NCBI GenBank assembly: GCA_964543115.1
Contig: CAZIXI010000001.1
Coordinates: 1-40,901, forward strand
Direction of reading: 5' to 3'
DNA: 40,901 bases
Source: an uncultured bacterium
Lineage (GTDB): Bacteria; Auribacterota; CAZIXI01
The notes below the pieces were generated by a model that had not been told where the DNA came from, did not search any database, and saw nothing but the letters and a program-made list of their open reading frames with translations. The translations under genes and the position numbers were made by a program. Positions 8,240 to 40,901 of the stretch are shown piece by piece (the first letter of the stretch is position 1; the number at the start of each line of letters is the position of its first letter).

Positions 8240-8316
8240 ATCTATATCCCCCGTAAAAGTAGTGAAGTTACAAGGAAAGTAGAGAGAAAATTTCTAACCC
8301 TCGCTTAGTTATAATA

Positions 8317-9492: not shown

Positions 9493-9516
9493 AGCCACCA
9501 CCTCCGTGTTAAATTT

Positions 9517-9609
9517 AAACGCAGAGACCGCAGAGGACGCAGAAAACACAAATAATAATTATGTGAATACTCTGCGTACTCTGCGAAGATCTTTGCGCTC
9601 TTTGCGTTT
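9517..9609. repeat. Imperfect palindrome built from 9-nt-phased heptamers (CGCAGAG x3 / CTCTGCG, CTTTGCG x4)
   Basis: Left-arm heptamers start at 9520, 9529 and 9538. Right-arm heptamers start at 9570, 9579, 9591 and 9600. The outer 19 nt (9517-9535 versus 9591-9609) are 16/19 complementary. The element sits at the junction of the 1842-aa ORF stop (9559) and the pseudopilin start. Confidence 0.7.
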
Positions 9610-18166: not shown

Positions 18167-18176
18167 AGCTATCACC

Positions 18177-19309: not shown

Positions 19310-19324
19310 TGGCACCTAAGTTGC
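19310..19324 (+). promoter_or_regulatory. Sigma54 (-24/-12) promoter
   Basis: TGGCAC-ctaag-TTGC is an exact match to the TGGCAC-N5-TTGC consensus. It is intergenic, about 160 nt upstream of the ATG at 19483, and the downstream operon encodes a sigma54 activator. Confidence 0.7.
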
Positions 19325-20192: not shown

Positions 20193-20315
20193 TTGAAATA
20201 ACCGCGCTCCCCGGGTGGTTTATACTCCCCAGATACTGCTCTCAGGGTATCTACCTATTTACCCCTTGAAATATCCCAAAACATGTAATATCATATGGGA
20301 AAAGGAAATACTCTT

Positions 20316-23024: not shown

Positions 23025-25574
23025 CTAGGATCGAGGATCTTTAATCGGCAGATACACCTTGAACGTTGTCCCTTTATCGACGATACTTTCAGCCTGAATC
23101 GTGCCGCCGTACTTTTTCACTATTTCCTGGCTGGCATAAAGGCCCAGGCCCGCGCCTTTATCCTCCCTTTTAGAAGTAAAAAACGCCTCGAATATCCGGC
23201 CCAGATTCTCCGGCGGTATCCCGCAGCCGGTATCTTTTATCCGCACTTCCGCCATATTTTCCCTGTCTTTGGAAACCAGAGAAATCACCGTTAATTCCCC
23301 ACCCTTAACCATGGATTCAACAGCATTATGGATCAGATTTAAAAACACCTGTTTTAACTCACCCCGGTCCGCTAACACCAGCGGCAGCTTAGAATCTAAT
23401 TCCTTGTTTAATTTAATCTTTTTCTTCATTAACTGGCCGGAGGAAAGATTCAACATCTCTTCGATAACTTCATTAATCGCCACCGCTACGACTTCTTTTT
23501 CCCGGGGACGATAAAGGTCCTTTAAGCTCTCACTCAAGCTATCCAGCCGTTTGGTTTCTTCCAGCGCGGAGGTAACAAACTTTTTGGCCAGGGACAATTC
23601 CTCCACCTCTACCTTATCCAGATCATCTTTTACCATTTCCAGGCTGCTCTTTAAATTAACGATCGGTTTACTTAAGTCATGATGCAATGTGGCCGCCACC
23701 TTCCCTACCGCGGATAAGCGCTCACTCTTGATCACTTCCTCCTGCGCCGTGCGCAGCTTATTAATCATAATGGCCATCGCTTTGTATTTTTCTTCTAATT
23801 CTTCCGTAACGTAACTCAAATCAATTTCAGATATTTCTTTTTCCTCCTTATATTCCACCAGCGGAACCCTGTCTACCTCCCGATCATACACGCATATTTT
23901 ATTGGCACCCTCTTTTCTTGCTCTGAGCAGCGCGGCTTCCGCGCGTTTAACAAAAGGTTTCGCGTATCTTTCCCTTACGTCCCGCGAATCGGCAATACCG
24001 GCACTCAGGGCCAAGGAAGAAACCGAAGTTATCTTTTCATTGAGCGTTTTTCCGATTCTCTCCGCATAGGACCGGGCGCCTTGTTTGGCTACCTGGCGCA
24101 AAACTGAGCAGAACTCAATCTCTCCGTAACGGGCAATAAAATCTATTCCCCTGGTCTTGCGGGAAGATTTAACAATCAAATTTGCCGCCTCTTTTATCAC
24201 ATTATTGGCCTTTTCCGCTCCCAACTCCGAAACCACCTGTTCGAAATTGTCTATGCCGAAGAGCACCAGAGACAGCTCCTCATCCTCCCTGAGATGTTTA
24301 AGGATATTATCCAATTTCAGCAGGAAATACCTCCTGGTAGGCAGCCCCGTCAAGATATCAACTATAACAAATTTTTTTATCTTAAAACTTTGAATAAGTA
24401 AACTCACGTAATTCGTTATCACCCCGGTTAAGTAAACTGCCAGCACGACAAGGGGAACACTAAAAAAATCCCAGCTTATATTATTAATCACTAAAAGCAG
24501 ACTAACGGCGGCAAAGAGAGCCAGAATCACCACTGTCCAGATAGTGCCGGAATAAATTCCTCTTTTAACGGTGAGAATACTGATTATTACACTTAATACT
24601 AACAAAAGCGCGATATTTACCGCCGCCGGCAGATGATAGATAAAATCCCTGTTCAGCAGCATTACCGCCGTATTAGCGATTATGCCCACACTGGCCATTT
24701 TTCCTAACGGCGTAAGATTAGCTTCCTGTAATGCCTCACCCGTAGCCCCCACCAGGACTATCCTTCCCCGAAAAAGATCCGGAGAAACATTACCGCTGAT
24801 AACCTCTCCCAGAGGAACAACGGTAAAATCAGCTAATCTCGCGGAATAATTAAGCGGTATAATACCGTTTTCGGGGACGGATAGGTTTAGTTTTTCAGCT
24901 AAACTTTCCGGTGAAATTTCCGCCAATGGCTTACCGGCAAACGCCCAGACAACTTTCAGATCGAAGGCATAATCAATTACCTCTCCCTGAAGCGCGTGCA
25001 AGCGAAAAAGCCTGGTTTCCCGAATAACACCGTCTTTATCTTCCGGCTTATTAGTAAAACCATAGCCAAGAGCATTTTCTGTAAACTTATGCGCTGGAAC
25101 AATATACCTGCCGTCCTGAGAGTCAAAGTAGGAAGCCAGGATAACGTTTCCCGCATCCCGGAAGGCCCCGGCCAACAGATCGTCACTGGCCTTTAAAGCC
25201 GGAACCGGACTGGTTCCGCTAAAAACAAGGTCGAAGGCAATTACGGCAGGTTGATGCTTTATGAGCTTATAAACAAGATTGGCAAAGACATCACGCTTCC
25301 AGGGCCATTTCGCCCTGACCGCCTGATCATCAATGGCCACAATGAGAAATTTATCCAGATTTTCCGGCCGGGAGGTAAGTTTATATTTTAAATTCGCTAA
25401 CAGATCACCGGCCTTAAGCTTGGGAGTGGTAAGTAATCCGGTTAGGCTGCCGATGGAATAGAGAACCAATATTACAGCAGCTACTGTCAGAGGCCGCCGC
25501 AATCGGACCAACTTTCTCAGCCATAAATAGTTAGTCATAATAAACTTCGGGAAGTCAATGGAATTTAACCGCAC
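23025..25574 (-). CDS. Hybrid sensor: CHASE2 domain, TM block, degenerate GGDEF domain and histidine kinase (HisKA + HATPase_c)
   Basis: The CHASE2 region reads FLIVAIDDQAV..WPWKRDVFANLVYKL..PAVIAFDLVF. TM helices lie at about aa 310-400. The GGDEF-like region reads DILTGLPTRRYF...FGIDNFE...ARYGEIEF, with GEIEF at 24111-24125 in place of GGDEF. The H-box is AATLHHDLSKPI. The ATPase region reads NLIHNAVES, IKDTGCGIP and GAGLGLY. Confidence 0.88.
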   Translation of the reverse strand: MRLNSIDFPKFIMTNYLWLRKLVRLRRPLTVAAVILVLYSIGSLTGLLTTPKLKAGDLLANLKYKLTSRPENLDKFLIVAIDDQAVRAKWPWKRDVFANLVYKLIKHQPAVIAFDLVFSGTSPVPALKASDDLLAGAFRDAGNVILASYFDSQDGRYIVPAHKFTENALGYGFTNKPEDKDGVIRETRLFRLHALQGEVIDYAFDLKVVWAFAGKPLAEISPESLAEKLNLSVPENGIIPLNYSARLADFTVVPLGEVISGNVSPDLFRGRIVLVGATGEALQEANLTPLGKMASVGIIANTAVMLLNRDFIYHLPAAVNIALLLVLSVIISILTVKRGIYSGTIWTVVILALFAAVSLLLVINNISWDFFSVPLVVLAVYLTGVITNYVSLLIQSFKIKKFVIVDILTGLPTRRYFLLKLDNILKHLREDEELSLVLFGIDNFEQVVSELGAEKANNVIKEAANLIVKSSRKTRGIDFIARYGEIEFCSVLRQVAKQGARSYAERIGKTLNEKITSVSSLALSAGIADSRDVRERYAKPFVKRAEAALLRARKEGANKICVYDREVDRVPLVEYKEEKEISEIDLSYVTEELEEKYKAMAIMINKLRTAQEEVIKSERLSAVGKVAATLHHDLSKPIVNLKSSLEMVKDDLDKVEVEELSLAKKFVTSALEETKRLDSLSESLKDLYRPREKEVVAVAINEVIEEMLNLSSGQLMKKKIKLNKELDSKLPLVLADRGELKQVFLNLIHNAVESMVKGGELTVISLVSKDRENMAEVRIKDTGCGIPPENLGRIFEAFFTSKREDKGAGLGLYASQEIVKKYGGTIQAESIVDKGTTFKVYLPIKDPRS

Positions 25575-25957
25575 TTCTTTAAAATAAACTGTTCAATATT
25601 TGAGGCAATTTTTAAAGCTTCTTCAGCTTCTTGTTTTGTTCGAGGGGGGACAGTTACAGGATATCTGAGTATTACATAGTAGTCAGTTATCTTACGGCAT
25701 TTATCTTCAAATTGTGCCACTTCTTCATCTATAGAGCAGCAATCTTTAACTAACTTTACCAAATCATGGATCTTGGAATATTTCCTGGCGTGATATACCA
25801 AAAATCCTTTAAGATATTTCTCTATTGCCTGGTGACATAAAACACAGACCTGAGAATAAAATTTGTCAGAATATTCAAATCCCAGCTTTGCATACCCCAA
25901 TTCATTTTCTCCCAGCTTAAACCATTCTTGAGATAACTTTGCAGAGTTATTTTTCAT
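25565..25957 (-). CDS. HEPN-domain protein (toxin partner of MNT)
   Basis: 130 aa. QVCVLCHQAIEKYLKGFLVYH....IHDLVKL fits the HEPN helix pattern. It overlaps the upstream MNT gene by 11 nt. Confidence 0.8.
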   Translation of the reverse strand: MKNNSAKLSQEWFKLGENELGYAKLGFEYSDKFYSQVCVLCHQAIEKYLKGFLVYHARKYSKIHDLVKLVKDCCSIDEEVAQFEDKCRKITDYYVILRYPVTVPPRTKQEAEEALKIASNIEQFILKKCG

Positions 25958-26273
25958 AAAGAACCTTGCCCTTAGCTAAAACTTGCTGAATAAAACTATC
26001 TCCAAGAAGCCTTCTCTGCTCTAGTTCCTCCGGGGTATATACCAAAATATCAAGTGGTAAGTCTGTATCCAAACAGCACCTGACCTCATATGTCCTTTTA
26101 AAATAATCCTTTTTAGTTGATTTGACAATCATCAGGTCTATATCGCTATCCTTGCCAAATCGCCCCTGAGCGGCACTTCCGAACACCAATATCTTTTCAG
26201 GATTATAATTTCTACTAATCTGATCAACAATCTGCTTAATTTGTGTCATTAAGTTATTATTTTCAGCTTTCAT
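25947..26273 (-). CDS. Minimal nucleotidyltransferase (MNT) antitoxin-type protein
   Basis: 108 aa. ILVFGSAAQGRFGKDSDIDLMIV is the GS-x(9-10)-D-x-D nucleotidyltransferase motif. GAAGGAG RBS. Confidence 0.85.
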   Translation of the reverse strand: MKAENNNLMTQIKQIVDQISRNYNPEKILVFGSAAQGRFGKDSDIDLMIVKSTKKDYFKRTYEVRCCLDTDLPLDILVYTPEELEQRRLLGDSFIQQVLAKGKVLYEK

Positions 26274-28364: not shown

Positions 28365-28379
28365 TCAAGAATCGTGCCA
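28365..28379 (-). promoter_or_regulatory. Sigma54-like element with degenerate -12 half
   Basis: The minus strand reads TGGCAC-gattc-TTGA. Its flanks are homologous to the consensus promoter at 32831-32845. Confidence 0.35.
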
Positions 28380-28510: not shown

Positions 28511-29863
28511 TTACTGGCGAGCTCCATTTAAGGACCAATGTAAATACTGCTCGATGCATCCTGCCAAATAAAAAGGTAAATTCAATAGAGTATAGTTTTT
28601 ACCTCTAATAGTTTTTACGTTGTCAATCTTTAATTGATCTGAATATACTCTGACAGCATATTGGTGCGGGGCACGATCAATAAATTCACTTAATGAACGC
28701 AAACGGCCGGCGCTGCCCATCTTTACTTCAATAGGTATTACATAATTCTCATACGGAATGATATAATCAATCTGGGCGTTTGACTGTTTTTTCTCCCGGA
28801 CCCAAAACTGTACTTTTTCACTAATCGTGCGGTACCTGGCCAATAACTCCTGCCCTATTATATGTTCCGCGATTTTCCCTTCATAGACACTGTTTAAATT
28901 TTGGGTGCCAAAAAGTTCTTTTTGTATCCCGACAAAATAATTAATCAATCCTGTATCGAGAAGATGCAATCTGGGGGATTTTTTATAATTAGCAACCATG
29001 GGCAAATCGACCACAGTTGCTGGATACATCAGCGTAATAATCATTGCTTTCTCAAGAGTCTTGAGCGCTTCTCCCATTTCTCGTGATTTATAACGGGAAT
29101 TACCGAAACCCTCAAAACGAATCCTGCTCCCGGCCGAGTAAAAAGAACTCTCGAGAGCATGGCGCATTACACGCGCTAAGGTTCTATTACGCGCGTATTT
29201 TTCAATATCTTCAAGATAAGATTGTAATAAGCTTTCATAAACAGGCTTTAAATTATTGAGATCCCGTGTTTCAGCATAAACATTGACTGCTTCCGGCATG
29301 CCACCGATCAGCGTATATTGATAAAACTGTTTTAGTAATTTCGCATGCGCAAAACTTGGACAAGGAATCTGGCTAATAACTTCTAAAGATGAATTATCTC
29401 TAAGGGCACCTAGATACTCTTTAAAAGTCAAAGGCTTCATATAAAGATATTCCACACGTCCAACTGGAAAATTAATATGACTATCTATTAAAGATTCCAA
29501 TAAAGAACCGGCAGCAATAACAAAAAGTTCTTTTGCATCTTCGTAAAAATATCGCAGCAGGGATACAGCGGCCGGAGAATTTTGTATTTCATCAATAAAG
29601 ATTAACGTTTTCAGTGAAGACCGTTTCTTATTCTTTAGAAAAAATATTCCCTGGATAAGTTCTTCAATCGCATACCCCTTGTCAAACAGTTGGCGATCAG
29701 CAGGTAACTCAAGATTGAGGTAGATATATTGTTCAAAATGTTTAGCGAACATTTCAACTGCCGTTGTTTTACCAACTTGCCTGGCACCGCGCAGCACCAG
29801 AGGTTTTCTGTGTTCTTTTTGCGACCAAGTGTTTAGTTCTTTAAGAATTACTCTATTAAACAT
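28511..29863 (-). CDS. AAA-type ATPase with DUF4143-like C-terminal domain
   Basis: 450 aa. Walker A in LVLRGARQVGKTT and Walker B in LIFIDEIQ. Length and layout are typical of the AAA_14/DUF4143 family (COG1373). GGAGAG RBS. Confidence 0.8.
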   Translation of the reverse strand: MFNRVILKELNTWSQKEHRKPLVLRGARQVGKTTAVEMFAKHFEQYIYLNLELPADRQLFDKGYAIEELIQGIFFLKNKKRSSLKTLIFIDEIQNSPAAVSLLRYFYEDAKELFVIAAGSLLESLIDSHINFPVGRVEYLYMKPLTFKEYLGALRDNSSLEVISQIPCPSFAHAKLLKQFYQYTLIGGMPEAVNVYAETRDLNNLKPVYESLLQSYLEDIEKYARNRTLARVMRHALESSFYSAGSRIRFEGFGNSRYKSREMGEALKTLEKAMIITLMYPATVVDLPMVANYKKSPRLHLLDTGLINYFVGIQKELFGTQNLNSVYEGKIAEHIIGQELLARYRTISEKVQFWVREKKQSNAQIDYIIPYENYVIPIEVKMGSAGRLRSLSEFIDRAPHQYAVRVYSDQLKIDNVKTIRGKNYTLLNLPFYLAGCIEQYLHWSLNGARQ

Positions 29864-29901: not shown

Positions 29902-30000
29902 GTCAGCCATAATACAGGCACAAATTGTGCCAAGGTCAGCTATATTTTTACATATTATTGTGTTATAGTCAACTATATTTATTATTCCTCCAGAACGGTT
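29902..30000. repeat. Three degenerate direct repeats phased exactly 33 nt apart
   Basis: GTCAGCCATAATA at 29902, GTCAGCTATATTT at 29935 and GTCAACTATATTT at 29968. Units 1 and 2 also share ATTGTG at the same offset. Unit 1 contains the palindrome GGCACAaatTGTGCC. Confidence 0.55.
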
Positions 30001-30275: not shown

Positions 30276-32789
30276 CTATACGGCAACATCACAGCCGACA
30301 AATTCTTCCGCTAATAACCCGCTTGCTGCCGGCGTTAAATCCTGGGCAGCGGAATCAATATCCGGCAAAGGAGTATTTCCGGAAACAGATCCCTTACTAA
30401 CTACGCGGAACAACAGCGCCCCGCCTCTAATTGGCAGCTCCATATACTGAAGCCTTATTTCCATGATATTGGCTAAATCAGATAGATAGTTTTTGTAAAA
30501 TTCCACATTTTTTCTGGGCACATCCGGTTTAAGTAATATCATCCCTCCCGGCCTAACTACCCTTAATACATCTCTTAACACCTGCAGTTCCTTGCCGCGC
30601 CCGCCCTGTTTCACCAAATGGTGAAGAAAATCCAGGATATTCACCTTACTGACAGAATCATCCGCTAACATTGTCAGTTCTTCGGCAACATCCCCTAGAA
30701 TAATATCCAGCGGTGGAACTTCCGGCTGCGGGAATTCTTCAGCGGATTCTTTCAGCTCCTCAATCAATCGCAGAATTGTTGTTACCTTTACCCCCCCCTG
30801 CCGCCTTATCCTGGTTCTTATCTCCTTAGCGGCTCTTATCCAGGCATAATTCCCCTTTAAACCCACGACAAAGGGCAGATTATATTCCGCTATATCGATA
30901 TAAATAGATTTTTTAACTCCTGCCAGACAGGCGGCAATATTCATAATTCCCGGCCCGCCGCCCAGCGAGAGATGAACATCGTCTTCATTCAAATCCAACG
31001 GCCCCAGCACCTCAGCCGCCGAGGTTGTATGAAAAGCCCAAGACCTGCCGGCTATCTCTGTGGGCAACATTGCCGGCAAATCAATCAGCCGCCTGCCATC
31101 CGCCTGCTCCCTAAACGGCAGCACACCTTTACTTTTGCCAAGGAGCTCCAGCATAAAACTCACATGATAGATACGCCCTAGAATATCCAGAACAGAACTT
31201 GTATCCATTGTATCCCGGAAACCCGCGCTAAGATCTGCCAGTAAATACCACAATTCATTACCCGGCTCTACGTTAAGGCTCTCTGTAAACAAATCTATCG
31301 TATCTTTGCGCAATTGATTGGTCGCCGACAATCTATCCAGGTATCTCTCTTCCGCTTCCTGCTTGATCCCTTCAAATATCCTCTTATTCTGTCCGTCAAT
31401 GATCTGTAAAATTGATTCAAGAATAGAAGAATCTTCCGGATAATATTTATATTCAGCCAAACCACGAAAAATCGTCTGACAAAAATTAGACAGCATACCT
31501 TCCATCTCTGCCGCCATTTCACGAATATAGAGAACCTCTAAATATTCCTTTAATGATTCGGCTAATAAGCGAGCCTCCGCCCGGCCGTAGCCCTTCACCT
31601 GTCTTTTATCATTTCGTGTTGCATCCCAGGCCTCTTCCAGAAAACGCCGGCCTGCTTCATCACCCAGGGCCTGGCGGCTCATTACCCCGTCAAATAACGC
31701 TTTATGAACCTGTTTGCTCCGTTGCCGCCTTTCTTCTTCAGTTCCTTCACTCTTACCGTAATGACGGTCAAATTCCTGCAGGCACATCAGGGGTTTAATG
31801 TAATTTATCTTTCCGATATCCACGCACACCGCCTCTTCCGACCTGCTGCTTGAGGGGCTGCCTTCAGGCCGGGGGGGCCAGGCCTTAAACATAACATTTT
31901 CCGGCTGCACGTCACTAATTCCCAGATATCTTATATCTCCTACATCGGCGTCTACTTCATCATTAATCCTAAAAACAGCCCTGCCATTTGCCTTCTTCGT
32001 ATCCAGCGCGCACATTACCGAAAGATAGGCAACAACCAGGTTCTTGATCCTTACGGGAATAAACAGGCCGCGGGCCATCAGCTGATGCGCGGTGGGACCG
32101 TCAACCCAATCTTCGGTATAGGCATAAAATCTATTATCCGAATCACTTAAATCCTCAATGTAAAGGCCAAACGAAGGGATTTTACCACTGCGTTTACTGC
32201 TGATTTCATGCAAAGTGGGTATTTCTTCCCGGCCCGATTCCCTGGACCGGGCAAAACCCTCTCTCGCGGCCCTGTTAATAGCAACCTTTAACGCGAATCT
32301 TTGCGGCACCCCCTTGAGCCCCTCAATAAACACTTCCACGCGCAATGTCTGCTTCTGGGAACCCTGTCCTCCCTCGTAAACATCAATCTTCTCTATGGGA
32401 ATAGAAAGATCAACCATCCCGCCCAGGGCGTTATAAACGAATTTTTTATCCTTTAATAATTCCTCTATCTTAGCTAAATTGGCCGCGATCTTGCGATTAT
32501 CTTTGGGGTTTCTCCGGGAACGCCTATCCCGGCAAAAATTCACTTCATATTCAAATCCATTCTCCGCCTCATAATCAATATCCTTTCTCAAACTATAGAC
32601 AGGAACCTCATTTTGCTCTTCGGGATCACTATTGTGCCGCGCACCGGCCCGCACACCATCGCGGAAGGCCCCATCTTGCAGATAGCTCTGACTGGCCAGC
32701 GTAGAGCTGTTTTTAAACTCAGCGGCAGCCACAGTATTCTGCCATAAGAATACTATCGCTATAACCAGAGATATGATTTTATTATGCAT
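30276..32789 (-). CDS. Secreted fusion: protein-kinase-like domain and class I SAM-dependent methyltransferase domain
   Basis: 837 aa. Signal peptide MHNKIISLVIAIVFLWQNTVAAA. Kinase-like motifs are FALKVAI (beta3 Lys), YTEDWVDG (hinge), ISDVQPENVMF (cf. HRDLKPEN catalytic loop) and VCVDIGK (cf. DFG). Methyltransferase motifs are HLSLGGGPG (motif I), IYIDI, ILGDVAEE and VRPGGMILL. Confidence 0.8.
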   Translation of the reverse strand: MHNKIISLVIAIVFLWQNTVAAAEFKNSSTLASQSYLQDGAFRDGVRAGARHNSDPEEQNEVPVYSLRKDIDYEAENGFEYEVNFCRDRRSRRNPKDNRKIAANLAKIEELLKDKKFVYNALGGMVDLSIPIEKIDVYEGGQGSQKQTLRVEVFIEGLKGVPQRFALKVAINRAAREGFARSRESGREEIPTLHEISSKRSGKIPSFGLYIEDLSDSDNRFYAYTEDWVDGPTAHQLMARGLFIPVRIKNLVVAYLSVMCALDTKKANGRAVFRINDEVDADVGDIRYLGISDVQPENVMFKAWPPRPEGSPSSSRSEEAVCVDIGKINYIKPLMCLQEFDRHYGKSEGTEEERRQRSKQVHKALFDGVMSRQALGDEAGRRFLEEAWDATRNDKRQVKGYGRAEARLLAESLKEYLEVLYIREMAAEMEGMLSNFCQTIFRGLAEYKYYPEDSSILESILQIIDGQNKRIFEGIKQEAEERYLDRLSATNQLRKDTIDLFTESLNVEPGNELWYLLADLSAGFRDTMDTSSVLDILGRIYHVSFMLELLGKSKGVLPFREQADGRRLIDLPAMLPTEIAGRSWAFHTTSAAEVLGPLDLNEDDVHLSLGGGPGIMNIAACLAGVKKSIYIDIAEYNLPFVVGLKGNYAWIRAAKEIRTRIRRQGGVKVTTILRLIEELKESAEEFPQPEVPPLDIILGDVAEELTMLADDSVSKVNILDFLHHLVKQGGRGKELQVLRDVLRVVRPGGMILLKPDVPRKNVEFYKNYLSDLANIMEIRLQYMELPIRGGALLFRVVSKGSVSGNTPLPDIDSAAQDLTPAASGLLAEEFVGCDVAV

Positions 32790-32830
32790 AATTTACACCT
32801 TAATTCACAAAAAACCGTACCTTTCTATTC

Positions 32831-32845
32831 GCAATAATCGTGCCA
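32831..32845 (-). promoter_or_regulatory. Sigma54 (-24/-12) promoter for the kinase-like/methyltransferase gene
   Basis: The minus strand reads TGGCAC-gatta-TTGC, an exact consensus match. It lies 42 nt upstream of the ATG at 32789, with AAGGTG as the RBS. The initial transcribed sequence TTGCGAATAGAAAGG resembles TTGCGTATTAGAAACAGG at the 19310 promoter. Confidence 0.7.
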
Positions 32846-32995
32846 GGATCAGCTAAAAGGCAGAAAACTGTCGTATCTGATTGGATTGCTTAATGATACG
32901 TAATTGACAGGCTGTTTTTGGCAGGTAGAACATCTAATAAGCAGTCAATATCCTGTATATTCAATCCTAATAAATTCCTATTTTTGTGTTAAATT

Positions 32996-35900
32996 TTACG
33001 CGGAATGTTCAGTCGCTAACGCCTTTTCCAATGACTCTACATTAACCCTGGGCACCGGCGGCGCGCTCCAACCGCCATTAATATTCTGTTTCGGCATGAA
33101 AATTTCATAGCCATCACCAATCTTGGCCTTCAGCATTTCCCGTACTCTCTTTTCTACCACGCGCGGATCGCCGCCGGAATTGAGTACCAGGTAAAACGCC
33201 TCACTCAGTGACTGCTGTACGAATTGCGCCTCCACACCCTCAATAGCGCTTTCCAATACAACCGCCTTCACCGCGCCCACAACTATTTCCATAAACTGCG
33301 CTACCCAGTTACTGGGATTATCAACAAATACCAACTCAACCGTATCTTCAGTCTTTATCTGTTTCTTGATACTCTCTAAAACAGTCAGCTTATTCTTTTC
33401 CACATCTTCCCGCACCTGTTTTGTCCTCACCAGGCCGGCGTATAATTCACTCTGCTGGCCTAGCAGCAGGTTAATTATCTGTTCTTCACTTACCGGCAGT
33501 TCATCATCCTTCATATTCACAAACGCGAACTTCACGTCAATCTCTACCTTCCGGCCCCTGATTTCCTGCTCTAAACCCCTAAGGCTCCTGGCCTGGGCCG
33601 CTATCTGCAGGCCCTTCATAGTCAATTGCGCCTTTCCGTCAGGTCCAAGCTTAATCAGGCTGGGCGCGTCTAACACATACACCATCGTCCCGCTCCAGGG
33701 TTTCTCAGGCATTTCACCCAGCTCACTTAACCCGCCCTGGAAGATGTCCCGGCCCGCCTGATCCGCCGCCAACTGCACCTGATCGCTAACCGGCATCTTC
33801 TTCGTCTTCTGCACGAAGCTCACCTTTTTATAATCGCCTTTAGCGGTCCTCGCACCCAGCTCGATCTTCCGGGGATCAAATCCAAATTTCTCGGCATTGG
33901 CAATGGTCAAGGCCGCGATATCCAGGAAGCCCAATTGCGTCAGCAAATCAACAAACTCTTTATCCCGGCCGCTCTTCGTCAATTCAAATTCAATGCCCAG
34001 TTTCTGATGGGTAAACACAGGACTGGCAGCATCACCTAAACCCAAATTCTCCACAAAATCTGCCAGCACTTCTTCCCAGACAGACGGCTGCAAGTCATAA
34101 TATTTATCGGCAAATAGATTAGGGAAGAACTTTTCCTGTACATCTTTAGAGGTAAGAATAATCTCCATTATCCTGCTCAGGGCCCTGCGCTCTGCCTCCG
34201 TGCCGTTTCTGGCAATATCATAGATACGCGTATGCACACCTTCATGCACCACACTTCTAAATGTCTTTTCCGCACTTAATTTGCCGGACACAACCGCCGT
34301 CCCGTCACTCAAGGTCCAGCCACTAAATTCTGCCGGAACCTTACCGGTATTAACTTTCTCCTTCAGCAACTGATCCACCCTCTGCCGCACTGGTTCCGCC
34401 GCCCGTGCTTCCGGCTTAAGGAAAGACACAACCGCTCCCGGCGCCGGCATACTTACCGGCAACAACACGGGCGCTAGACCTTTCTCTTCTGTCACCTCTA
34501 CGTCCTTCCGCGCCTCGGCATAGACAGACTGCATCTGTTGCATCGCCCGATCGATTTTTCCGTAATCAGGCATCAATCCCTGAACTTCTTCATCTACTTC
34601 ACTTGGCTCCCGCAACAGCGCGATAATCTCTTCATTGGTATAGACATCCATCAGTTCAGCGCAAATTGCCTGTGTCAGCTCCAGATAATCCATCTCCATT
34701 ATATTCCCATACTGTTCATAACAGGATTCCAGATACTTCCGGAGACTGAAAGCCACGAACTTCTCTCCAATATCAACACAAATCGGATCTTGTTTATAAA
34801 CCCGTTTTCCAGCAACCCGGCTGGCTTCTGTATCAACAATAAATTTGGTGTTTTCTTCATTACGGTCATCCGGATAGATCAAATTACCTTCAAGATTATA
34901 CATTCTCTTAGCGATCCGCACCCAGAGCCGGGTCAACGCCACTAAGTTTTCCTCTTTAAACTGGTCCGCTGCTATTAAGTCATGAACATCATCCCCGTCA
35001 ATCCATTCTTCAAAGAACTGCCGTTTACCCTGACTCTCGCTTTCCCAACCGTAAACCGGCACCAAGCCACTGCCGGATAATTTCTGCAAGCGTTCCAATT
35101 CAATATCCGATATCTTGCCCTTAACACCGGCAACATCCTTTTCTATCTTTAACGCCGCGAAAAGCACCTCCATTTTCTTGCCGCCGGTTAGAGTGAATAC
35201 TACCCGGTAAACATCCTTCTGCGTACCGCTCTTCTCAAAAGAAAGAGCCATCTCCCTAATATCAGCCAGGTCAATATCCAACTGATACTTTTCCCGGACA
35301 AATCTGATAAAATCATCCGTATTCTTCTCCAATTCAACCCGGACACTGACCAATGCCTCGTGCGTCGACTGAATAATGCTCTCGTAAGTACGCCCGTCTT
35401 CCCAGACTAGGACACCGGCTTCATTTACGCGGCACTGACTCTTTACTGATTCAGGGAAGACCGCCTGACCGCTGATTTTCTGAATCAAATCCCGTTTGCC
35501 AATAAAAGCAATTTTACCCTCAACATAATCGGCAAAGATCCGGGCCGGATCATTTGGATGTTCACTAATAAGCGAATGGAGATAATCAATATCACCTTCC
35601 GCTACTGCTTGATCCACAATAAACTTCAAGAACTCACTCGGCTGGCCTTTTTCAGCAAACGCCCACAATGCCTGCGAGGCCTGGGCATGGGTCTTGCCAT
35701 TCTGCAACTCCTGCCATTCATGATCAATGCGTTCGGCCAGTAAAGCAACCGCGCCTTCTCTGATAATCTTATTCCATAAAGCCTTAGTAACATAAATCTG
35801 AACCTTATCTCCCACCTTCTTCCCGTAAAAATACACCATATTGCTTACACCAGCCGCTCCCGCGCGCTGAGCGAACCCTAACTGGCTGCCCTGATCAACC

Positions 35901-38900
35901 GTCAGCACCTCCACATTACTGACGTCAAACGCCGTTTCACCTTCAGCTGGCGGCGCCCGTTCCTCAATCTGCCTGATTCTCGCTGCCGCCTGATCAATCG
36001 CTTGCTGCTCACTAACAACCTGTGCCCCTTTATCCGCAATAATAGTGTCAACATATTCAGCCACACCCGCCAGATCCTCACTCGCCCAGGTGGCGCCCGG
36101 CGCCTTACTGGTCACCCCTGGCAACGTCGGCGCTTCCGGAGCGGTAATCACCGGAAGAGTAGGCGCTTCCCTGCTTATTACCCCCTCAGCCTCCGCCAAT
36201 GCCTGCTCCTGCTCCAGCTCATCCCGCTGCAACCGTGCCAATAGGCCTGTAAATTCTTGTTTCCGCTCTTCCGGTGCTATTTCCTGAGCCTGTAACAATA
36301 TATTTTTTGCCTCAACTAATTCATCCAGCTGATAGTGGAGTATTCCAATACTCTTTAAGACTCCCCATTTTTCCTCCGCCGGCGCCAAATCAGCAGCTTC
36401 CTGCAATTTGGCCATTCCCTTCTCTACATCTCCCTCTGAAGACAATATATCACCCAGACTCCTCAGTACGTTCCATTTGTTTTCCTCCGATACAATGGTT
36501 TCCGCCTTTTCCAGCACGGCAATCGCTTCCGCTACCTTCCTCTGCGCTCTCAGCACAACAGCTAAATTCACAAAATTAGCCCAGCTGTCTTCACCTTCCA
36601 GGGCAATACATTCATTGAAAATCTGCTCCAATTTAACCGCGTCATGTATGGTCTGTTCTTGCCAATATACATTAACTAAGGCTTGTAACTGCTGCAAGAC
36701 TGCTGCCTCATTGCCTTCCAGAGTTTTCATTTGCTCAACTTGTGCCCAAATACCATCAAACACCTCATTGGCCTCAGCCGGCTTATTCATCCTAACTAAG
36801 GTTTCTAACAGTTTCAGCTGAACCTGCGTATTGCCTTCCTCAGCCACCGCCTCCTGCCCGGCCAGTGACTGCAATTTCACAAGCATCTCATCTGAGCGCT
36901 TGCCGTCACTATCCTTTAATCCCTGGGCAACCTCCGCGTAGATGCCCGCCTGCTCAACAGCACTTTTCTTTCCCACAGCCTCTGAACTTGCATAAGCATA
37001 CACCTGCAACCAATCTCCCTGTTGTTTATGCACCCTGAACAGCTGTGCATCTACCGCCGCTATGCTGGCCTGCTGATTTTGCAGTTGAGGATTGGCAATC
37101 AATAAATCCTTAGCCTGCTGTAGCACACCAGCAGCCTTCGCTAACAGCACCTGATCCTCTCCGGCCTTTTCCACTGCCTTACCGGCAATCTGCTGATAGC
37201 GCTGCACCCTGTCAGAAACATCCTCTATAGCGTCAGCCATTTTCATCGCCTTATCTACATCACCTTGTTCCACCGCGGATTCAAACACTATTTTGTCAGC
37301 CTGCTCTTTTTCCTGACTGAACAGCGCCTTTAATCTGTCGTCAGACAATGTATCTATATTAGCCAGGATCTCTGTAGCCTGTTTAACCGACATCCCCTCG
37401 GCCTGCATCTGCATCTGCATCACTCGGGACATCGCCGTCTGCTGATCCATCTGCCCCGATTCCATCTGCTGCCTCAAGTCCGCCATCTCTTTTTCCATCG
37501 CCTTTTCCGCACCTGTCTGTAATTCCATAAGTGACTGTTTTACCGCTGCCATCTTTTCCATATCCTGCTGAGTAACCGAATACCCCAGCGCATTCAATAC
37601 TCCGGTCAATGCCCTTACATAACTCACAGCATTATTAGCATCCGCCTGGCTTAACCCCTTAAACGCCGCTGCCAAAGCGACATTATCCTTTGTGCGCATT
37701 CCAATAAGTTCACGGTCATAATTTCTATCTGCAACCAGTAGACCCACTGCCGCAAAAACTGTTTCCCTCACCTGACTGTCATTGGTGGTTAACAACAATT
37801 GGATGTACCCTTCAGCAAGCTCTTTCGGCCCGGCTAAACGCTTACTCTCGCGAATAGCCTTCACCGTACTATAAGTACCCAAAGCAGCACCGACAGCCAA
37901 TGCGCCCAGGGTAAACAACCCAGAACTTATTACGCCCGCACCCATCAGGCTCAGCGCGCCAACAGACACACCCAATTTCACCGCCGGATGCTTGAGCACC
38001 TCCAGTTGTGCCGCTTTTTCCGCACCCTCGGGAGTCTCAAACATCTTTGCTATCCTGGTACCGGCAAATTTCTGCGCAACCAAACCCTTGATTACATTTG
38101 TTACCCCGCCGCTTTGCTTCAACTGTAATCTGATCCTGGCAACAGTTGATGTCTCCGCCTTTTTCTGCAGCTTGGCCAATTCCGCTTTTTCCTCTTTCTG
38201 CTTAACTATATTTCCCCTGACCACCTGAGCTATTTCAACCTTCGTCCGGACCTCCGGCTGATCAATACCCTGAACCGCAGCTTCAACCTTCTCAATAACC
38301 GTTTTCATCTCCACCACATCTTGATCCTTACCAGTATACTCCGCCACTTTAGTAGAAATAGTCTGCGCCCTATCGGTCTGCCCGCTGGCAACATACAGCT
38401 GCGCCAGCACAACCAGCGAATCAATATTTGTTGCCATTACATTTACCTCAGCCAAATTATCCTCAGTAACTCCAACACTGCTCAATAAATCCGCCTCCGC
38501 AATCTCCATTGCTGCGGCCTCCTGTGCCTGGCCATTGGCCAAGTAAGCGCGTGCCAGCACCATATTCTGCTCTTCTGTCCGATCTTCAACCTGCGCCAGC
38601 GCTGTTGCTGCCTTATCATAGTTACCTTTCTGCAGATTATTTTCAGCTTTTAAGGTCACATTGTCCGGCTGAAGAGCAAACTGCAGGGCCTGATAAGAAT
38701 CTATATCACTCATCGCAGCTTTCATTTCTTCCGGATCTTTTTCCTGCTGTAAATTTTTAACTTGTTCTTCTGCCCAGGAAGCTACATCTCCCTGCGTCTC
38801 AGCTGTCATAAGCTGGCCGGCAATCTTATGCGCCGCCTCATCACTGGCCGTTTGAATACCTAATAAGTTTTTCACCAACGCTTGACTGAACACTGCAGTG

Positions 38901-40901
38901 ATTTCTTGCTCTTCCCCCTCCCTAATATCTCCGAATATCCCGTCTGCCGAGGCTATGCCAGTAACAAAACCAGACTGTAGCTCCTGATTTTTCGGGAAGA
39001 ATTCCGCGACCATACTTCTTATTTCACTGATCCTCTCTCGTTCCTTCTTACTATAGGTCGGCAGCAAGATGTCCGCCATCCCTTCTTCCCCTAGATTTTC
39101 AAAACTCATAATTCCTTTCTCTGCCTCTTTCAGCGCCTCTTTCTTTTCCTTTAATTGTTTATCTAATTTACGCATCTCTTTGCCTGCTTTGCGTTGACTC
39201 ACAGTACCTACTTGAAGCTTATACTGCTGCTCCCGCATTTCAGCTTCAATCTCACCTTTTTCTCTAGTCAAATTCACTGCCTGAGTGATTGTTTCTGCCG
39301 GAAGTGCCTGCTGAACTTTCTGTTTATCGGCAGCATCACCGTTCTCCAATATCCAGCCAGCCAGCTGTACTCCGGGCGCGGAAGAATTCAAAATATCCAG
39401 AAACACTCCCCCGCTCATACTAGCAGCAATACCGTAATCCTGCAGATTAGTGGCCAAAGTCACTACCTGGATAAAATCTGTTTCCGGTTGCTGCAACAAT
39501 TCATTAACCGCGGTTTGAATGCTTTCCGGCAGCTTGGCAGCAACCTTACCCCAATCACCCGAACTAAAATTCTTTATCCGAGTTATCTTGTCACTAGTTA
39601 TAAAAGGATCTATCTTCTTAAGAACTGACTCCAGATCTGCTCCATTGTCCTGGCAGAGTTGCTGAATCATTGTCACTGCCTCAATAGAATTTGTCGGCTC
39701 TGCTTTGCCTAAGACATTACCTAAGGCCAAGAATACTGCTTTTTCTTCTCCTTTTTCATCAGTGGCACTCTCTGCCAAGCTGCTTATCCAAGTAGGAACA
39801 ATGGCCAAAGAAGCATTACCGCGGGCAATAAATGTTTGGGCAAGAATATCCATAGATACACCCTTTTCTTGTAAACGATTCACCGCTTTTTCCCCGCCGA
39901 CTTTCCGCACGGCCTCAGTTAACGCTTCGGCTTTTGTCTTGACCGTCACCGCAGTCTCCTTGGCCCCCAGCGTGGCCTTGGAAGGAAGGATATCGCTGGC
40001 TAAGGTTTTTACAACACTGATTACATACTCTACTCCACCCTCCTGCGGCACACGGGCCAGGGACTTTTCCGGCATCTTGGCAGCCTCGATACTGTCCCAG
40101 GTTTTTTTATTGGTTACATCTATCTCCAGTTCCGCTGCCCGCTTATTGGCATAGGAACGCACTTCTTTTAATTTTCTGTTAGTGCCAATCTCCGTCCATA
40201 ACCTCTGCGCGGTTCTAATGGCGTTGTTCAGCATATTCTGGGCAATCTCTTCCGGCGAACGGTATTCTTTGGCGGTGAATATATCATCAGATTCCCCTTC
40301 CCCGCTGTTCAGCCGGTCCAGCATTTTCTCTAATATCTTCACTTCTGCACATTCCGCTCCCTTCATCTCTGTCAGTATCATGATCATCTCTTTTACCGGT
40401 TCTTTAAACAACTTACCCAGCACCTCACTGGAGATCTTAAACTCTGTGGAACTGCTCTTATCCACCAGGCCCATAAACCGAGCGTTAGCCTCCAGGCTGT
40501 TTAATAGTGCCTCTCCCGCCTCCCCTTTCGCCTTTTGGATTGTAAACTTCTGTAATTGGTCTGTAACCTCCATAAACTCCTCACTCATCGTTAACTCATT
40601 AGTCTTCATGAAGTTCCGCATTTTCAGGGCCTGCTGGCGAGTTTCTCCCAATGCCTTCATATCAAAGTGCAAATGCCGCATAGTCTCTTTTCCGCTTCTT
40701 CCCGCCCTGCCCAGAGCTTGTAATAGCAGATCACGGTTCATGGTATGGGCATCCAGAATTAACAGATTTATAGTAATTTTCTCTTTCGCCTTACCTGTAA
40801 CACCTTCCGGTGCTTCCGAGGCAAAATCCAGGCCCCGCATACCCAGATCAGTGGCCAACACTATCCGCCCACCATGCAAGCCGGCCTTGCCGGCAACTGT
40901 T
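32996..40901 (-). CDS. Giant multidomain protein (>=2634 aa in window, N-terminus right of window): SecA-type NBD2 end, TM hairpin, TPR-like repeats, kinase-like module and HExxH motif
   Basis: The track ORF is 32996..40879, but the 'M' at 40879 is an in-frame TTG. The frame stays open to 40900 (TVAGKAGLHGGRIVLATDLGMRGLDF). Stop at 32996. Confidence 0.9.
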   Translation of the reverse strand, partial: TVAGKAGLHGGRIVLATDLGMRGLDFASEAPEGVTGKAKEKITINLLILDAHTMNRDLLLQALGRAGRSGKETMRHLHFDMKALGETRQQALKMRNFMKTNELTMSEEFMEVTDQLQKFTIQKAKGEAGEALLNSLEANARFMGLVDKSSSTEFKISSEVLGKLFKEPVKEMIMILTEMKGAECAEVKILEKMLDRLNSGEGESDDIFTAKEYRSPEEIAQNMLNNAIRTAQRLWTEIGTNRKLKEVRSYANKRAAELEIDVTNKKTWDSIEAAKMPEKSLARVPQEGGVEYVISVVKTLASDILPSKATLGAKETAVTVKTKAEALTEAVRKVGGEKAVNRLQEKGVSMDILAQTFIARGNASLAIVPTWISSLAESATDEKGEEKAVFLALGNVLGKAEPTNSIEAVTMIQQLCQDNGADLESVLKKIDPFITSDKITRIKNFSSGDWGKVAAKLPESIQTAVNELLQQPETDFIQVVTLATNLQDYGIAASMSGGVFLDILNSSAPGVQLAGWILENGDAADKQKVQQALPAETITQAVNLTREKGEIEAEMREQQYKLQVGTVSQRKAGKEMRKLDKQLKEKKEALKEAEKGIMSFENLGEEGMADILLPTYSKKERERISEIRSMVAEFFPKNQELQSGFVTGIASADGIFGDIREGEEQEITAVFSQALVKNLLGIQTASDEAAHKIAGQLMTAETQGDVASWAEEQVKNLQQEKDPEEMKAAMSDIDSYQALQFALQPDNVTLKAENNLQKGNYDKAATALAQVEDRTEEQNMVLARAYLANGQAQEAAAMEIAEADLLSSVGVTEDNLAEVNVMATNIDSLVVLAQLYVASGQTDRAQTISTKVAEYTGKDQDVVEMKTVIEKVEAAVQGIDQPEVRTKVEIAQVVRGNIVKQKEEKAELAKLQKKAETSTVARIRLQLKQSGGVTNVIKGLVAQKFAGTRIAKMFETPEGAEKAAQLEVLKHPAVKLGVSVGALSLMGAGVISSGLFTLGALAVGAALGTYSTVKAIRESKRLAGPKELAEGYIQLLLTTNDSQVRETVFAAVGLLVADRNYDRELIGMRTKDNVALAAAFKGLSQADANNAVSYVRALTGVLNALGYSVTQQDMEKMAAVKQSLMELQTGAEKAMEKEMADLRQQMESGQMDQQTAMSRVMQMQMQAEGMSVKQATEILANIDTLSDDRLKALFSQEKEQADKIVFESAVEQGDVDKAMKMADAIEDVSDRVQRYQQIAGKAVEKAGEDQVLLAKAAGVLQQAKDLLIANPQLQNQQASIAAVDAQLFRVHKQQGDWLQVYAYASSEAVGKKSAVEQAGIYAEVAQGLKDSDGKRSDEMLVKLQSLAGQEAVAEEGNTQVQLKLLETLVRMNKPAEANEVFDGIWAQVEQMKTLEGNEAAVLQQLQALVNVYWQEQTIHDAVKLEQIFNECIALEGEDSWANFVNLAVVLRAQRKVAEAIAVLEKAETIVSEENKWNVLRSLGDILSSEGDVEKGMAKLQEAADLAPAEEKWGVLKSIGILHYQLDELVEAKNILLQAQEIAPEERKQEFTGLLARLQRDELEQEQALAEAEGVISREAPTLPVITAPEAPTLPGVTSKAPGATWASEDLAGVAEYVDTIIADKGAQVVSEQQAIDQAAARIRQIEERAPPAEGETAFDVSNVEVLTVDQGSQLGFAQRAGAAGVSNMVYFYGKKVGDKVQIYVTKALWNKIIREGAVALLAERIDHEWQELQNGKTHAQASQALWAFAEKGQPSEFLKFIVDQAVAEGDIDYLHSLISEHPNDPARIFADYVEGKIAFIGKRDLIQKISGQAVFPESVKSQCRVNEAGVLVWEDGRTYESIIQSTHEALVSVRVELEKNTDDFIRFVREKYQLDIDLADIREMALSFEKSGTQKDVYRVVFTLTGGKKMEVLFAALKIEKDVAGVKGKISDIELERLQKLSGSGLVPVYGWESESQGKRQFFEEWIDGDDVHDLIAADQFKEENLVALTRLWVRIAKRMYNLEGNLIYPDDRNEENTKFIVDTEASRVAGKRVYKQDPICVDIGEKFVAFSLRKYLESCYEQYGNIMEMDYLELTQAICAELMDVYTNEEIIALLREPSEVDEEVQGLMPDYGKIDRAMQQMQSVYAEARKDVEVTEEKGLAPVLLPVSMPAPGAVVSFLKPEARAAEPVRQRVDQLLKEKVNTGKVPAEFSGWTLSDGTAVVSGKLSAEKTFRSVVHEGVHTRIYDIARNGTEAERRALSRIMEIILTSKDVQEKFFPNLFADKYYDLQPSVWEEVLADFVENLGLGDAASPVFTHQKLGIEFELTKSGRDKEFVDLLTQLGFLDIAALTIANAEKFGFDPRKIELGARTAKGDYKKVSFVQKTKKMPVSDQVQLAADQAGRDIFQGGLSELGEMPEKPWSGTMVYVLDAPSLIKLGPDGKAQLTMKGLQIAAQARSLRGLEQEIRGRKVEIDVKFAFVNMKDDELPVSEEQIINLLLGQQSELYAGLVRTKQVREDVEKNKLTVLESIKKQIKTEDTVELVFVDNPSNWVAQFMEIVVGAVKAVVLESAIEGVEAQFVQQSLSEAFYLVLNSGGDPRVVEKRVREMLKAKIGDGYEIFMPKQNINGGWSAPPVPRVNVESLEKALATEHSA
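34232..34246 (-). other. HExxH motif (possible zinc metallopeptidase site)
   Basis: The minus strand reads CAT GAA GGT GTG CAT, encoding HEGVH in the context FRSVVHEGVHTRIYD. Confidence 0.35.
34650..35260 (-). other. Protein-kinase-like module in giant ORF 3, paralogous to that of the 837-aa protein
   Basis: VLFAALKIEK, FFEEWIDGDD, LIYPDDRNEENTKF (34850-34872) and PICVDIGEKF (34758-34790). The order and spacing match FALKVAI, YTEDWVDGP, SDVQPENVMF and VCVDIGK in the 837-aa ORF. Confidence 0.6.
37865..37985 (-). other. Predicted TM hairpin in giant ORF 3
   Basis: AVKLGVSVGALSLMGAGVISSGLFTLGALAVGAALGTYSTV is a roughly 40-residue Gly/Ala-rich hydrophobic stretch flanked by charged residues. 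Confidence 0.6.
40640..40900 (-). other. SecA-like NBD2 C-terminal motifs
   Basis: AGKAGLHGGRIVLATDLGMRGLDF corresponds to SecA AQAG..G.VTIATNMAGRGTDI. INLLILDAHTMNRDLLLQALGRAGRSGKETMRHLHFDMKAL corresponds to [42 protein letters not shown]. Confidence 0.7.

Follow-up and report, generated by a model that had tools for sequence, protein, structure and literature searches.

Among the described systems closest to the locus reported here are a bacterial enzyme and a class of giant proteins. The enzyme, WbdD of E. coli O9a, is cytoplasmic and membrane-associated; it adds a phosphate to the terminal O-antigen mannose and next methylates that phosphate (PMC3482155). The giant and very long proteins of Omnitrophota combine divergent SecA DEAD domains with membrane helices, are encoded near type II secretion/pilin and carbohydrate genes, and draw on a domain pool of PF08241 methyltransferases, GNAT domains, phosphoglucomutases, glycosyltransferases and radical SAM domains (10.1101/2023.11.21.568195; 10.64898/2026.06.07.730766). 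Many of the long proteins with methyltransferase, GNAT or PGM domains have been argued to be anchored in the inner membrane, with their bulk in the cytoplasm (10.64898/2026.06.07.730766). Kinase-term searches of these two reports found no description of a protein-kinase-like domain. Here we describe a 40,901-nucleotide stretch of DNA from an uncultured bacterium of the Auribacterota lineage (contig CAZIXI010000001.1 of assembly GCA_964543115.1, hereafter the window), which encodes an 837-residue protein, P0001, composed of a kinase-like module, a helical linker and a class I S-adenosylmethionine (SAM) methyltransferase, and, upstream on the same strand, a giant open reading frame (giant ORF 3, or G3) with a second copy of the kinase-like module. 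Predicted structures place the two modules in a new, highly divergent family of the protein-kinase-like (PKL) superfamily. With moderate confidence, we interpret the kinase/linker/methyltransferase unit as a mobile cassette from the Omnitrophota-type giant-protein domain pool, which in P0001 is free-standing and carries a predicted Sec signal.

P0001 resembles WbdD (PDB 4azs) in joining a eukaryotic-like kinase fold to a class I SAM methyltransferase within one polypeptide. The fold search with the G3 module also lists WbdD (rank 33; E = 1.8e-5), and the carbohydrate-rich gene context of the window is compatible with a glycan substrate. The two systems differ in that WbdD is cytoplasmic, whereas the P0001 group carries predicted Sec-type signals, and in that the kinase C-lobe of P0001 and G3 is much smaller. 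The likeness to the Omnitrophota giants ('Archaeovorins') extends over the window and the relatives of the module, which show a divergent SecA_DEAD motor, membrane helices, TPR scaffolds and mosaics assembled from metabolic enzyme domains (Methyltransf_11, GNAT, phosphoglucomutase PGM/PMM, glycosyltransferases and radical SAM); pilin-like and glycoside-hydrolase genes lie near the giants in the window. Of the three very long frames that the ORF list and an open-frame scan reveal there (Table 1), giant ORF 1 qualifies as a protein of this type, and G3 shows only helicase motifs V/VI at its edge and one hydrophobic stretch. Because the window giants are cut by the window ends, their visible size is a lower bound in any comparison with the Omnitrophota giants.

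P0001 and G3 have in common a collinear module of ~220 residues. The initial annotation had listed (F)ALK, E(E/D)W(I/V)DG, D-x4-N and CVDIG(E/K) motifs in both proteins and a near-canonical DVQPEN loop in P0001; on the alignment, all of these are present and in the same order (Table 1). BLASTP recovers the N-lobe only (P0001 143–243 against G3 1892–1981; 31% identity, E = 3e-4). The pairwise comparison with shuffled controls that had been proposed for the two modules, run as a Smith–Waterman alignment from the glycine loop to DIG, gave a score of 85 against 33.1 ± 4.9 for the shuffles (n = 2,000; z = 10.6), none of which scored as high. A hidden Markov model (HMM) of 18 family proteins from which G3 was excluded matched G3 1873–2091 at 87.3 bits (E = 1e-27) over model positions 9–217 of 233 (209 positions); the 18 proteins included P0019, later judged spurious. 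The coordinates first given for the G3 module, 34650–35260, thus fall in the right region, and the HMM replaces them with the extent in Table 1. The two modules are ~21% identical, and no third copy was found in giant ORF 1 or ORF 2.

We predicted the structures of both modules with AlphaFold2, using a 16-sequence alignment, and compared them with the PDB by Foldseek, of which the best 50 matches were listed. The models cover P0001 residues 119–395 (predicted local distance difference test score (pLDDT) 87.4, predicted TM-score (pTM) 0.87) and G3 residues 1863–2105 (pLDDT 87.8, pTM 0.84), with secondary structure in the order β1-β2-β3-αC-β4-β5-hinge-αD-αE-β6-β9. For P0001, all of the best 50 listed are protein-kinase-like, at E-values from 2e-5 to 7e-4 (72 matches at E ≤ 1e-3); they include YabT, PknB, casein kinase 1 (CK1), MAP kinases, APH(3')-Ia and choline kinase, as well as 25-hydroxysteroid kinase and Rv3168. 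The best 50 listed for G3 likewise all have the kinase fold (1,029 matches at E ≤ 1e-3) and include FGFR2, ULK1/2, CDC7, CK1, kinase domains of class III lanthipeptide synthetases and WbdD. An alignment of 16 divergent members (mean column identity 30%) shows no variation at the αC Glu, at one Gly of the hinge, at the Asn of the catalytic loop or at the DxG Gly. Conservation is at least 90% for Gly and Lys of the glycine loop (GSQK), for Ala-x-Lys in β3 and for both the catalytic and the DxG Asp. In both models, the conserved columns map to the predicted β3, αC, catalytic loop and loop after β8, with the β3 Lys in the predicted strand and its Glu partner at the start of αC. Fifteen of the 16 aligned members, P0001 and G3 among them, retain the full canonical set of Lys, Glu, Asp-x4-Asn and Asp-x-Gly. 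The bilobal kinase-like fold originally proposed for both copies is therefore upheld by models, fold search and alignment together, and its catalytic residues are retained.

The module family belongs to no curated kinase family. Neither P0001 nor G3 matched a Pfam kinase family at E ≤ 1, NCBIfam likewise returned no kinase, and the kinase profile found nothing among PDB sequences at E ≤ 10; when the 16 modules were scanned singly, one gave a sub-threshold Pkinase match (E = 0.0044). The best structural matches, Hanks-type kinases such as PknB and YabT and eukaryotic kinases (PF00069), share with the modules the β3 Lys, the αC Glu, the D-x4-N loop (DVQPEN in P0001 versus DLKPEN) and the DxG metal-binding motif. 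They differ in that no member of the new family reaches the Pfam cut-off, that HRD, APE, a long activation segment and helices αG–αI are missing, and that the glycine loop of the module, unlike that of Hanks-type kinases, reads GxxGSQK. No His-Arg precedes the catalytic Asp, where the sequence is ISDVQPEN in P0001 and YPDDRNEEN in G3; after DIG, the models contain only a short strand and three helices, and the module ends ~70 residues further on. APH(3') and choline kinase, which are top fold matches of the P0001 module (TM up to 0.50), resemble it in being compact and lacking protein-kinase regulatory elements. With these enzymes there is no sequence similarity, and their Brenner motif HxDxxxxN is absent from the module, which has no His before the Asp.

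By analogy with characterized PKL enzymes, ATP would bind under the GxxGSQK loop, where the five-stranded N-lobe meets the small, helical C-lobe. The K168–E189 pair of P0001 would position the phosphates, D324 and N298 would bind metals, D293 would act as the base, and the module would transfer the γ-phosphate of ATP. We regard it as unlikely that the fold is instead used for another chemistry (AMPylation as in SelO, glutamylation as in SidJ, or phosphorylation of small molecules or lipids as in APH, choline kinase and Kdo kinase) or as a non-catalytic scaffold. Secreted atypical kinase-fold proteins have repeatedly proved to have non-kinase chemistry, which counts for this alternative, as do the small-molecule kinases (APH(3'), choline kinase, 25-hydroxysteroid kinase and Rv3168) found beside protein kinases among the fold matches, the minimal C-lobe without protein-kinase substrate-binding elements, and P0018, in which the catalytic loop is degenerate (NPGLNN) and ADPG replaces VDIG. 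Set against these points is the full canonical set in all but one of the aligned members, which is the signature of ordinary phosphotransfer with ATP in its normal orientation.

The remainder of P0001 consists of the helical linker and the methyltransferase. An HMM of the linker matches P0001–P0005 only, and the linker has no Pfam match. The fusion to a class I SAM methyltransferase that had been annotated is borne out by motif I, LSLGGGPG at residues 607–614, which is invariant among cassette members, and by a score of 23.6 bits for the isolated domain against the Methyltransf_11 (PF08241) cut-off of 21.2; scanned whole, P0001 scores 20.0 bits, just under that cut-off. Methyltransf_11 matches all five cassette members (best E = 1.3e-7), and the PDB profile matches of the domain are weak, but they are methyltransferases. 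One cassette member gives a weak, sub-threshold match to Bin3, a phosphate methyltransferase family (E = 3.3e-4).

To define the family, we searched 1.84 billion representative proteins exhaustively with a profile of the module from P0001 and three close homologs, and we retrieved 18 proteins. One, P0019, was rejected as a repetitive protein with 15 weak partial matches, leaving 17 credible members. Eight members are proteins of 3,624 to 7,546 residues, and all five named members come from metagenome-assembled genomes (MAGs) of Candidatus Omnitrophica/Omnitrophota (PIZ85115.1, MDD5566049.1, RJO64544.1, MBU4590787.1 and MCX5708659.1). Full-length homologs of P0001 number three (P0002–P0004), and an exact look-up of P0001 itself gave no match. 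A scan of GTDB genome representatives and JGI metagenomes with the cassette alignment yielded no confirmed relative. A word-indexed search with the 16-member module alignment returned nothing, probably owing to a limit of the index, since the exhaustive search gave 18 proteins; the same type of search with the C-terminal 1,035 residues of G3 found no homolog and also missed the query itself, and the flanks of the G3 module are orphan.

The cassette recurs inside giants. P0001 residues 80–837 align with residues 4234–4941 of P0005 (5,182 residues, complete; 35% identity), and P0001 after its signal peptide also aligns with residues 3471–4099 of P0006 (4,423 residues); the cassette thus lies in the C-terminal part of P0005 and is embedded in P0006. 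Residues 4072–5180 of P0005 are collinear with the entire P0002–P0004, from an N-terminal block through kinase, linker and methyltransferase to a C-terminal block. P0005 (L012:5580-21128) and the ~1,170-residue P0003 and P0004 have in common a homologous signal peptide, the last 1,100 residues and the C-terminal tail (last 25 residues), so that P0003 looks like P0005 minus an internal payload of ~4,000 residues after the N terminus. This payload includes adenosine deaminase, pyridoxal phosphate enzyme, radical SAM, adenylate kinase and glycosyltransferase domains, and P0005 and P0006 have common blocks in differing order.

A second subgroup has an anthrax-lethal-factor-like HExxH domain (seen in P0011) ahead of the kinase. 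P0011, P0013 and P0014 have upstream blocks and kinases that are 91–98% identical, followed by a methyltransferase (P0011; Methyltransf_11, 38 bits), a HAD-like block or nothing, with the swap at junctions bearing the motif (A/S)SSP(L/V). The methyltransferase of P0011, a distant family member, is independent of the one in the cassette; an hhalign comparison of the two gave E = 0.0028. On these architectures, the association of kinase and methyltransferase arose at least twice. P0018 joins its degenerate kinase copy to a GNAT acetyltransferase, and P0007 (507 residues) and P0008 (400 residues) are small, predicted secreted proteins with little beyond the module.

A junction motif of the form (A/S)SSP(L/V/I/A) recurs between domain blocks of P0010–P0014, P0016, P0017 and P0023, all of them proteins of Omnitrophota MAGs, and P0023 contains two internal twin-arginine-like motifs (SRRKFLKVG and SRRDFLKAAG) after such junctions; this pattern suggests polyprotein processing or fused former genes. 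G3 has an HExxH motif of its own (HEGVH, then TRIY; residues 2216–2227, window ~34220–34255, minus strand) 130 residues past the module and an DHEWQELQNGKTH stretch (residues ~1722–1740) 146 residues before it. HExxH blocks precede the module in P0011–P0014 and P0016, and an FHEG...H..IY block does so in P0002–P0006; the resemblance is at the level of motifs only. A phmmer search with the giant ORF 1 motor detected no SecA-like region in the module-bearing giants.

Taken together, these comparisons show that the PKL family is part of the interchangeable pool of enzyme domains in long and giant multi-enzyme proteins of Omnitrophota-type bacteria. Within their enzyme mosaic, the module is one interchangeable cassette, and the giants evolve by inserting or swapping whole enzyme cassettes between conserved termini and at marked junctions. 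The alignments likewise show a further copy of the kinase module in G3, there on its own and, to judge by its sequence, a paralog. Because the cassette recurs inside giants and the lone module occurs in G3, we attribute the presence of the module in both window proteins to cassette shuffling by gene fission and fusion; with ~21% identity, the two copies have the look of paralogous cassettes drawn from a pool of shuffled domains. A functional link of the cassette with long proteins is supported by its fusion in P0005 and P0006. The recurrence of the fusion, together with the WbdD precedent, leads us to expect that the methyltransferase would act on the same substrate as the kinase, possibly on the new phosphate. 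The most likely substrate would be an envelope glycan or a protein, belonging either to the cell itself or to a prey or host cell, with a small molecule as a further candidate.

The free-standing forms carry putative Sec-type signals, and the P0001 enzyme is thus predicted to leave the cytoplasm. The secreted or periplasmic location given in the initial annotation agrees with our reading of the P0001 N terminus, in which MHNKIISLVIAIVFLWQNTVAAA, followed by EF, has the three-part make-up of a Sec signal peptide: an n-region (MHNK), an h-region formed by the 12-residue hydrophobic core IISLVIAIVFLW, and a c-region, QNTVAAA, with an AxA site before EF. A hydrophobicity scan marks residues 4–23. 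Comparable N termini are found in P0002–P0008 and in the protein encoded upstream of the P0001 ortholog at locus L001, and P0002 has a lipobox, LAGC. Within this group (P0001–P0008 and the L001 upstream protein, L001:388-5097), a motif x-L-A-(S/P/N/K/V)-x-(S/K) lies 5–20 residues past the predicted cleavage site in all nine signal-peptide proteins, with examples such as TLASQS, KLANRS, NLAPDS and TLAVQS; in P0001 it occupies residues 29–35 (window ~32685–32705, minus strand). The L001 protein has this motif and lacks the kinase module, and the other secreted proteins of the window do not have it; the motif may be a sorting or processing signal. Small aliphatic C-terminal ends are found in P0001–P0008, P0015, G3 (window 32999–33030, minus strand) and the L001 upstream protein (...LLEQAA, ...LLETYA, ...IQVSA, ...INVSV, ...LLLLAA, ...IEDAA, ...IAMAA, ...ATEHSA, ...CDVAV and ...ILSAV), and they may represent a common C-terminal signal.

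Several points weigh against the interpretation of P0001 as an exported kinase/methyltransferase cassette. TM-scores against solved kinases are only 0.35–0.53, which indicates a very divergent member of the kinase fold, and the AlphaFold2 alignments are shallow (16 sequences). The C-lobe is much reduced and lacks the HRD His/Arg, the APE motif and a long activation segment, and the substrate class is not readable from the fold of the module. P0007, P0008 and G3 have no methyltransferase, so coupling of the two activities is not obligatory. WbdD has the order methyltransferase–kinase–coiled coil, as opposed to kinase–helical linker–methyltransferase in P0001, and it was not retrieved by profile searches of PDB sequences with the kinase or methyltransferase alignments. 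Finally, the normal periplasm contains neither ATP nor SAM, and predicted export to such a space implies either that the enzyme acts in or on another cell or that the topology prediction is wrong.

Action in or on another cell would fit the proposal that Omnitrophota live as predators or depend on hosts. In its furthest form, this idea makes the cassette an Omnitrophota-specific exported effector, delivered to or into prey or host cells alone or as the tail of a giant SecA-motor protein, that would use the ATP and SAM of the victim to place phosphate and methyl marks, possibly methyl-phosphate, on envelope glycans or proteins; we consider this speculative and improbable. The other outcome would make the N-terminal hydrophobic segment a membrane anchor; the enzyme would then not be secreted and, like WbdD, would modify lipid-linked glycans from the cytoplasmic face. 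This also strikes us as doubtful. ATP and SAM are cytoplasmic, WbdD is cytoplasmic and membrane-associated (PMC3482155), and inner-membrane-anchored long proteins have been argued for Omnitrophota (10.64898/2026.06.07.730766), all of which suit an anchored enzyme. On the other hand, the n-region Lys, the short 12-residue core and the AxA site predict an N-in orientation with export of the C-terminal part and cleavage, P0002 has its lipobox, and all eight family members with complete N termini have the same kind of signal.

The adjacency of P0001 and G3 had been taken to suggest an enzyme–substrate or co-assembly relationship, in which P0001 would modify G3 or assemble with it through the common fold. 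The two genes lie 206 nt apart on the same strand, with the P0001 gene downstream, and we examined whether this arrangement is kept elsewhere. A single orthologous locus was found (L001, with shorter copies L002 and L003), which retains the downstream CHASE2-GGDEF-histidine kinase, FecR and σ54 regulator genes. There, the cassette gene is preceded, on its own strand, by the gene of a 1,569-residue signal-peptide protein with phosphoglucomutase and HExxH motifs, a protein that we rejected as an ortholog of G3 or a carrier of the module, its similarity to G3 being limited to 36 C-terminal residues (E = 0.01). The check on conserved adjacency therefore came out divided: a long-protein neighbor is kept at L001, and a kinase-bearing neighbor of the G3 type is not. 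The cassette directly follows, or is fused to, a long multi-enzyme protein in each of the four informative cases, namely the window, L001, P0005 and P0006; only in the window does it stand beside a giant of the same fold. The contig of P0003 carries the P0003 gene only.

Beyond adjacency, the dedicated pairing of P0001 with G3 found no support, and we hold it to be quite unlikely. The adjacency on one strand, the position of the L001 ortholog directly downstream of a long secreted multi-enzyme protein and, by Rosetta-stone logic, the fusion of the cassette to giants in P0005 and P0006 are in its favor. Against it, the protein encoded upstream at L001 is neither an ortholog of G3 nor a carrier of the kinase module, and the P0001 gene has its own σ54-type promoter match in the intergenic gap. 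At ~21% identity, the modules are neither a recent duplication nor co-evolving copies, and there is no sign that such PKL domains heterodimerize. The hydrophobic stretch of G3, N-terminal to its module, may form a single long membrane helix or a pair of short ones; if it is a hairpin, the G3 module would remain in the cytoplasm with the SecA-like motor, while P0001 would be exported. The last alternative, that the similarity of P0001 and G3 is due to chance or composition and reflects no true common domain, could appeal to the weak, N-lobe-only BLASTP result and to the lack of a kinase in Pfam, NCBIfam and PDB sequence searches, but it is ruled out for practical purposes by the shuffle z-score, the independent family HMM and two independent, confident AlphaFold2 models whose listed best 50 Foldseek matches are all kinase-fold proteins.

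The promoter match of the P0001 gene is exact, and the gene has an AAGGTG ribosome-binding site. Allowing up to one mismatch, the pattern TGGCAC-N5-TTGC occurs seven times in the window against 2.3 expected, and five of the matches are intergenic and upstream of genes (Table 1). A check of the sequence upstream of the L001 ortholog found no σ54 promoter.

Nearly all genes of the window are located on the minus strand according to the ORF list. GC skew on the plus strand runs from −0.05 to −0.39 across the whole window, and the coding (minus) strand is G-rich, a strong and uniform asymmetry. Downstream of P0001, Pfam identifies an AAA_14/DUF4143 ATPase, PqiA, MlaD, a nucleotidyltransferase/HEPN pair, a CHASE2-GGDEF-histidine kinase, FecR and a σ54-dependent response regulator. 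A search with the σ54 regulator, aimed at the taxon of the window, reached only 38–45% identity, to proteins of mixed MAGs. The nucleotidyltransferase/HEPN pair is of toxin–antitoxin type (25565–26273, minus strand), and the AAA_14/DUF4143 gene (28511–29863, minus strand) lies within the part of the window with the lowest GC content (38% at 28–30 kb); these genes and those for PqiA and MlaD have no counterpart in the syntenic L001 and are thus probably insertions. Three adjacent minus-strand genes (15971–16918, 17231–18220 and 18177–19025) encode signal-peptide proteins of ~280–330 residues without a Pfam match, and their similar C termini (...YIELIHE, ...YVELLHE and ...YVQMYHY) mark them as what appears to be a small paralogous family.

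Giant ORF 1 has SecA_DEAD, SecA_PP_bind and Helicase_C domains in Pfam, the SecA_DEAD domain being divergent. Its N terminus, MLSLNKYRILAHIITYIIIICFSCQNYVWA followed by QG, is signal-peptide-like, and the divergent SecA motor (residues ~1588–2168) is accompanied by many hydrophobic segments. The N terminus of the module-bearing giant P0015 resembles the N-terminal 450 residues of giant ORF 1 (23% identity, E = 2e-19). The helicase motifs V/VI at the cut edge of G3 align with the Helicase_C region of giant ORF 1 with a score of 50, reached by 4 of 1,000 shuffles, and the only Pfam matches in G3 are TPR.

Table 1. Features of the window and of the two module-bearing proteins. Residue 1 of G3 is the first full codon, at 40900.
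Feature	Window position	Strand	P0001 residues	G3 residues	Basis and remarks
Giant ORF 1	2–8293	minus			At least 2,764 aa; runs off the left window end
Pilin-like protein, N_methyl and DUF1559	9058–9549				Pfam
ORF 2	9559–15087	minus			1,842 aa; FG-GAP repeats and GH42 domain (Pfam)
σ54 activator gene	20295–21710				Pfam
P0001 gene, predicted exported kinase-like/methyltransferase protein	30276–32789	minus			837 aa; ORF list and translation
Class I SAM methyltransferase domain	30390–31022	minus	590–800		Methyltransf_11
Helical linker	31020–31469	minus	441–590		'mid' HMM
Protein-kinase-like module of P0001	31605–32429	minus	121–395 (catalytic core 143–327)		Family HMM, AlphaFold2 model
Sec-type signal peptide	32721–32789	minus	1–23		Sequence reading; predicted cleavage after AAA
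Giant ORF 3 (G3)	32996–40900	minus			At least 2,634 aa, open to the right window end; open-frame scan, translation
Protein-kinase-like module of G3	34628–35284	minus		1873–2091	Family HMM, AlphaFold2 model
G3 hydrophobic stretch, 36–38 aa	37877–37984	minus		973–1008	Kyte–Doolittle scan
G3 helicase motifs V/VI (ATDLGMRGLDF ... QALGRAGRSG)	40691–40900	minus			Cut N-terminal edge; C-terminal half of a SecA/DEAD-like motor
Gly-rich loop			GSQKQTL 143–149	GTQKDVY 1892–1898	
β3 Lys			FALK, K168	AALK, K1918	
αC Glu			E189	E1934	
Hinge			EDWVDG 226–231	EEWIDG 1964–1969	
Catalytic loop			DVQPEN 293–298 (D293, N298)	DRNEEN 2012–2017 (D2012, N2017)	
DFG-like motif			CVDIGK 322–327 (D324)	CVDIGE 2041–2046 (D2043)	
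σ54-like site	8317–8331	minus			Pattern search; just upstream of giant ORF 1
σ54-like site	19310–19324	plus			Pattern search; just upstream of the ORF at 19426
σ54-like site	28365–28379	minus			Pattern search; just upstream of PqiA
σ54-like site	29918–29932	minus			Pattern search; just upstream of the AAA_14 ATPase
Exact σ54 -24/-12 promoter match TGGCACGATTATTGC (TGGCAC-N5-TTGC)	32831–32845	minus			Pattern search; 42 nt upstream of the P0001 ATG

Most of the sequence of the giant Omnitrophota proteins has no recognizable domain. One such dark region can now be defined, on the basis of predicted structures, as a distinct kinase-fold family with intact catalytic residues. Unlike the giants, its small free-standing members of 400–1,300 residues are expressible and assayable, and they offer a handle on the biochemistry of giant proteins. 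That the module is repeatedly fused to methyltransferases points to a reaction in which phosphorylation is followed by methylation, a testable hypothesis. Newly found families of secreted kinase-fold proteins have, time and again, brought unexpected chemistry to light. If the cassette does act as an exported effector, it would represent a new type of secreted kinase/methyltransferase weapon and would provide the first biochemical handle on the role of the giant proteins.

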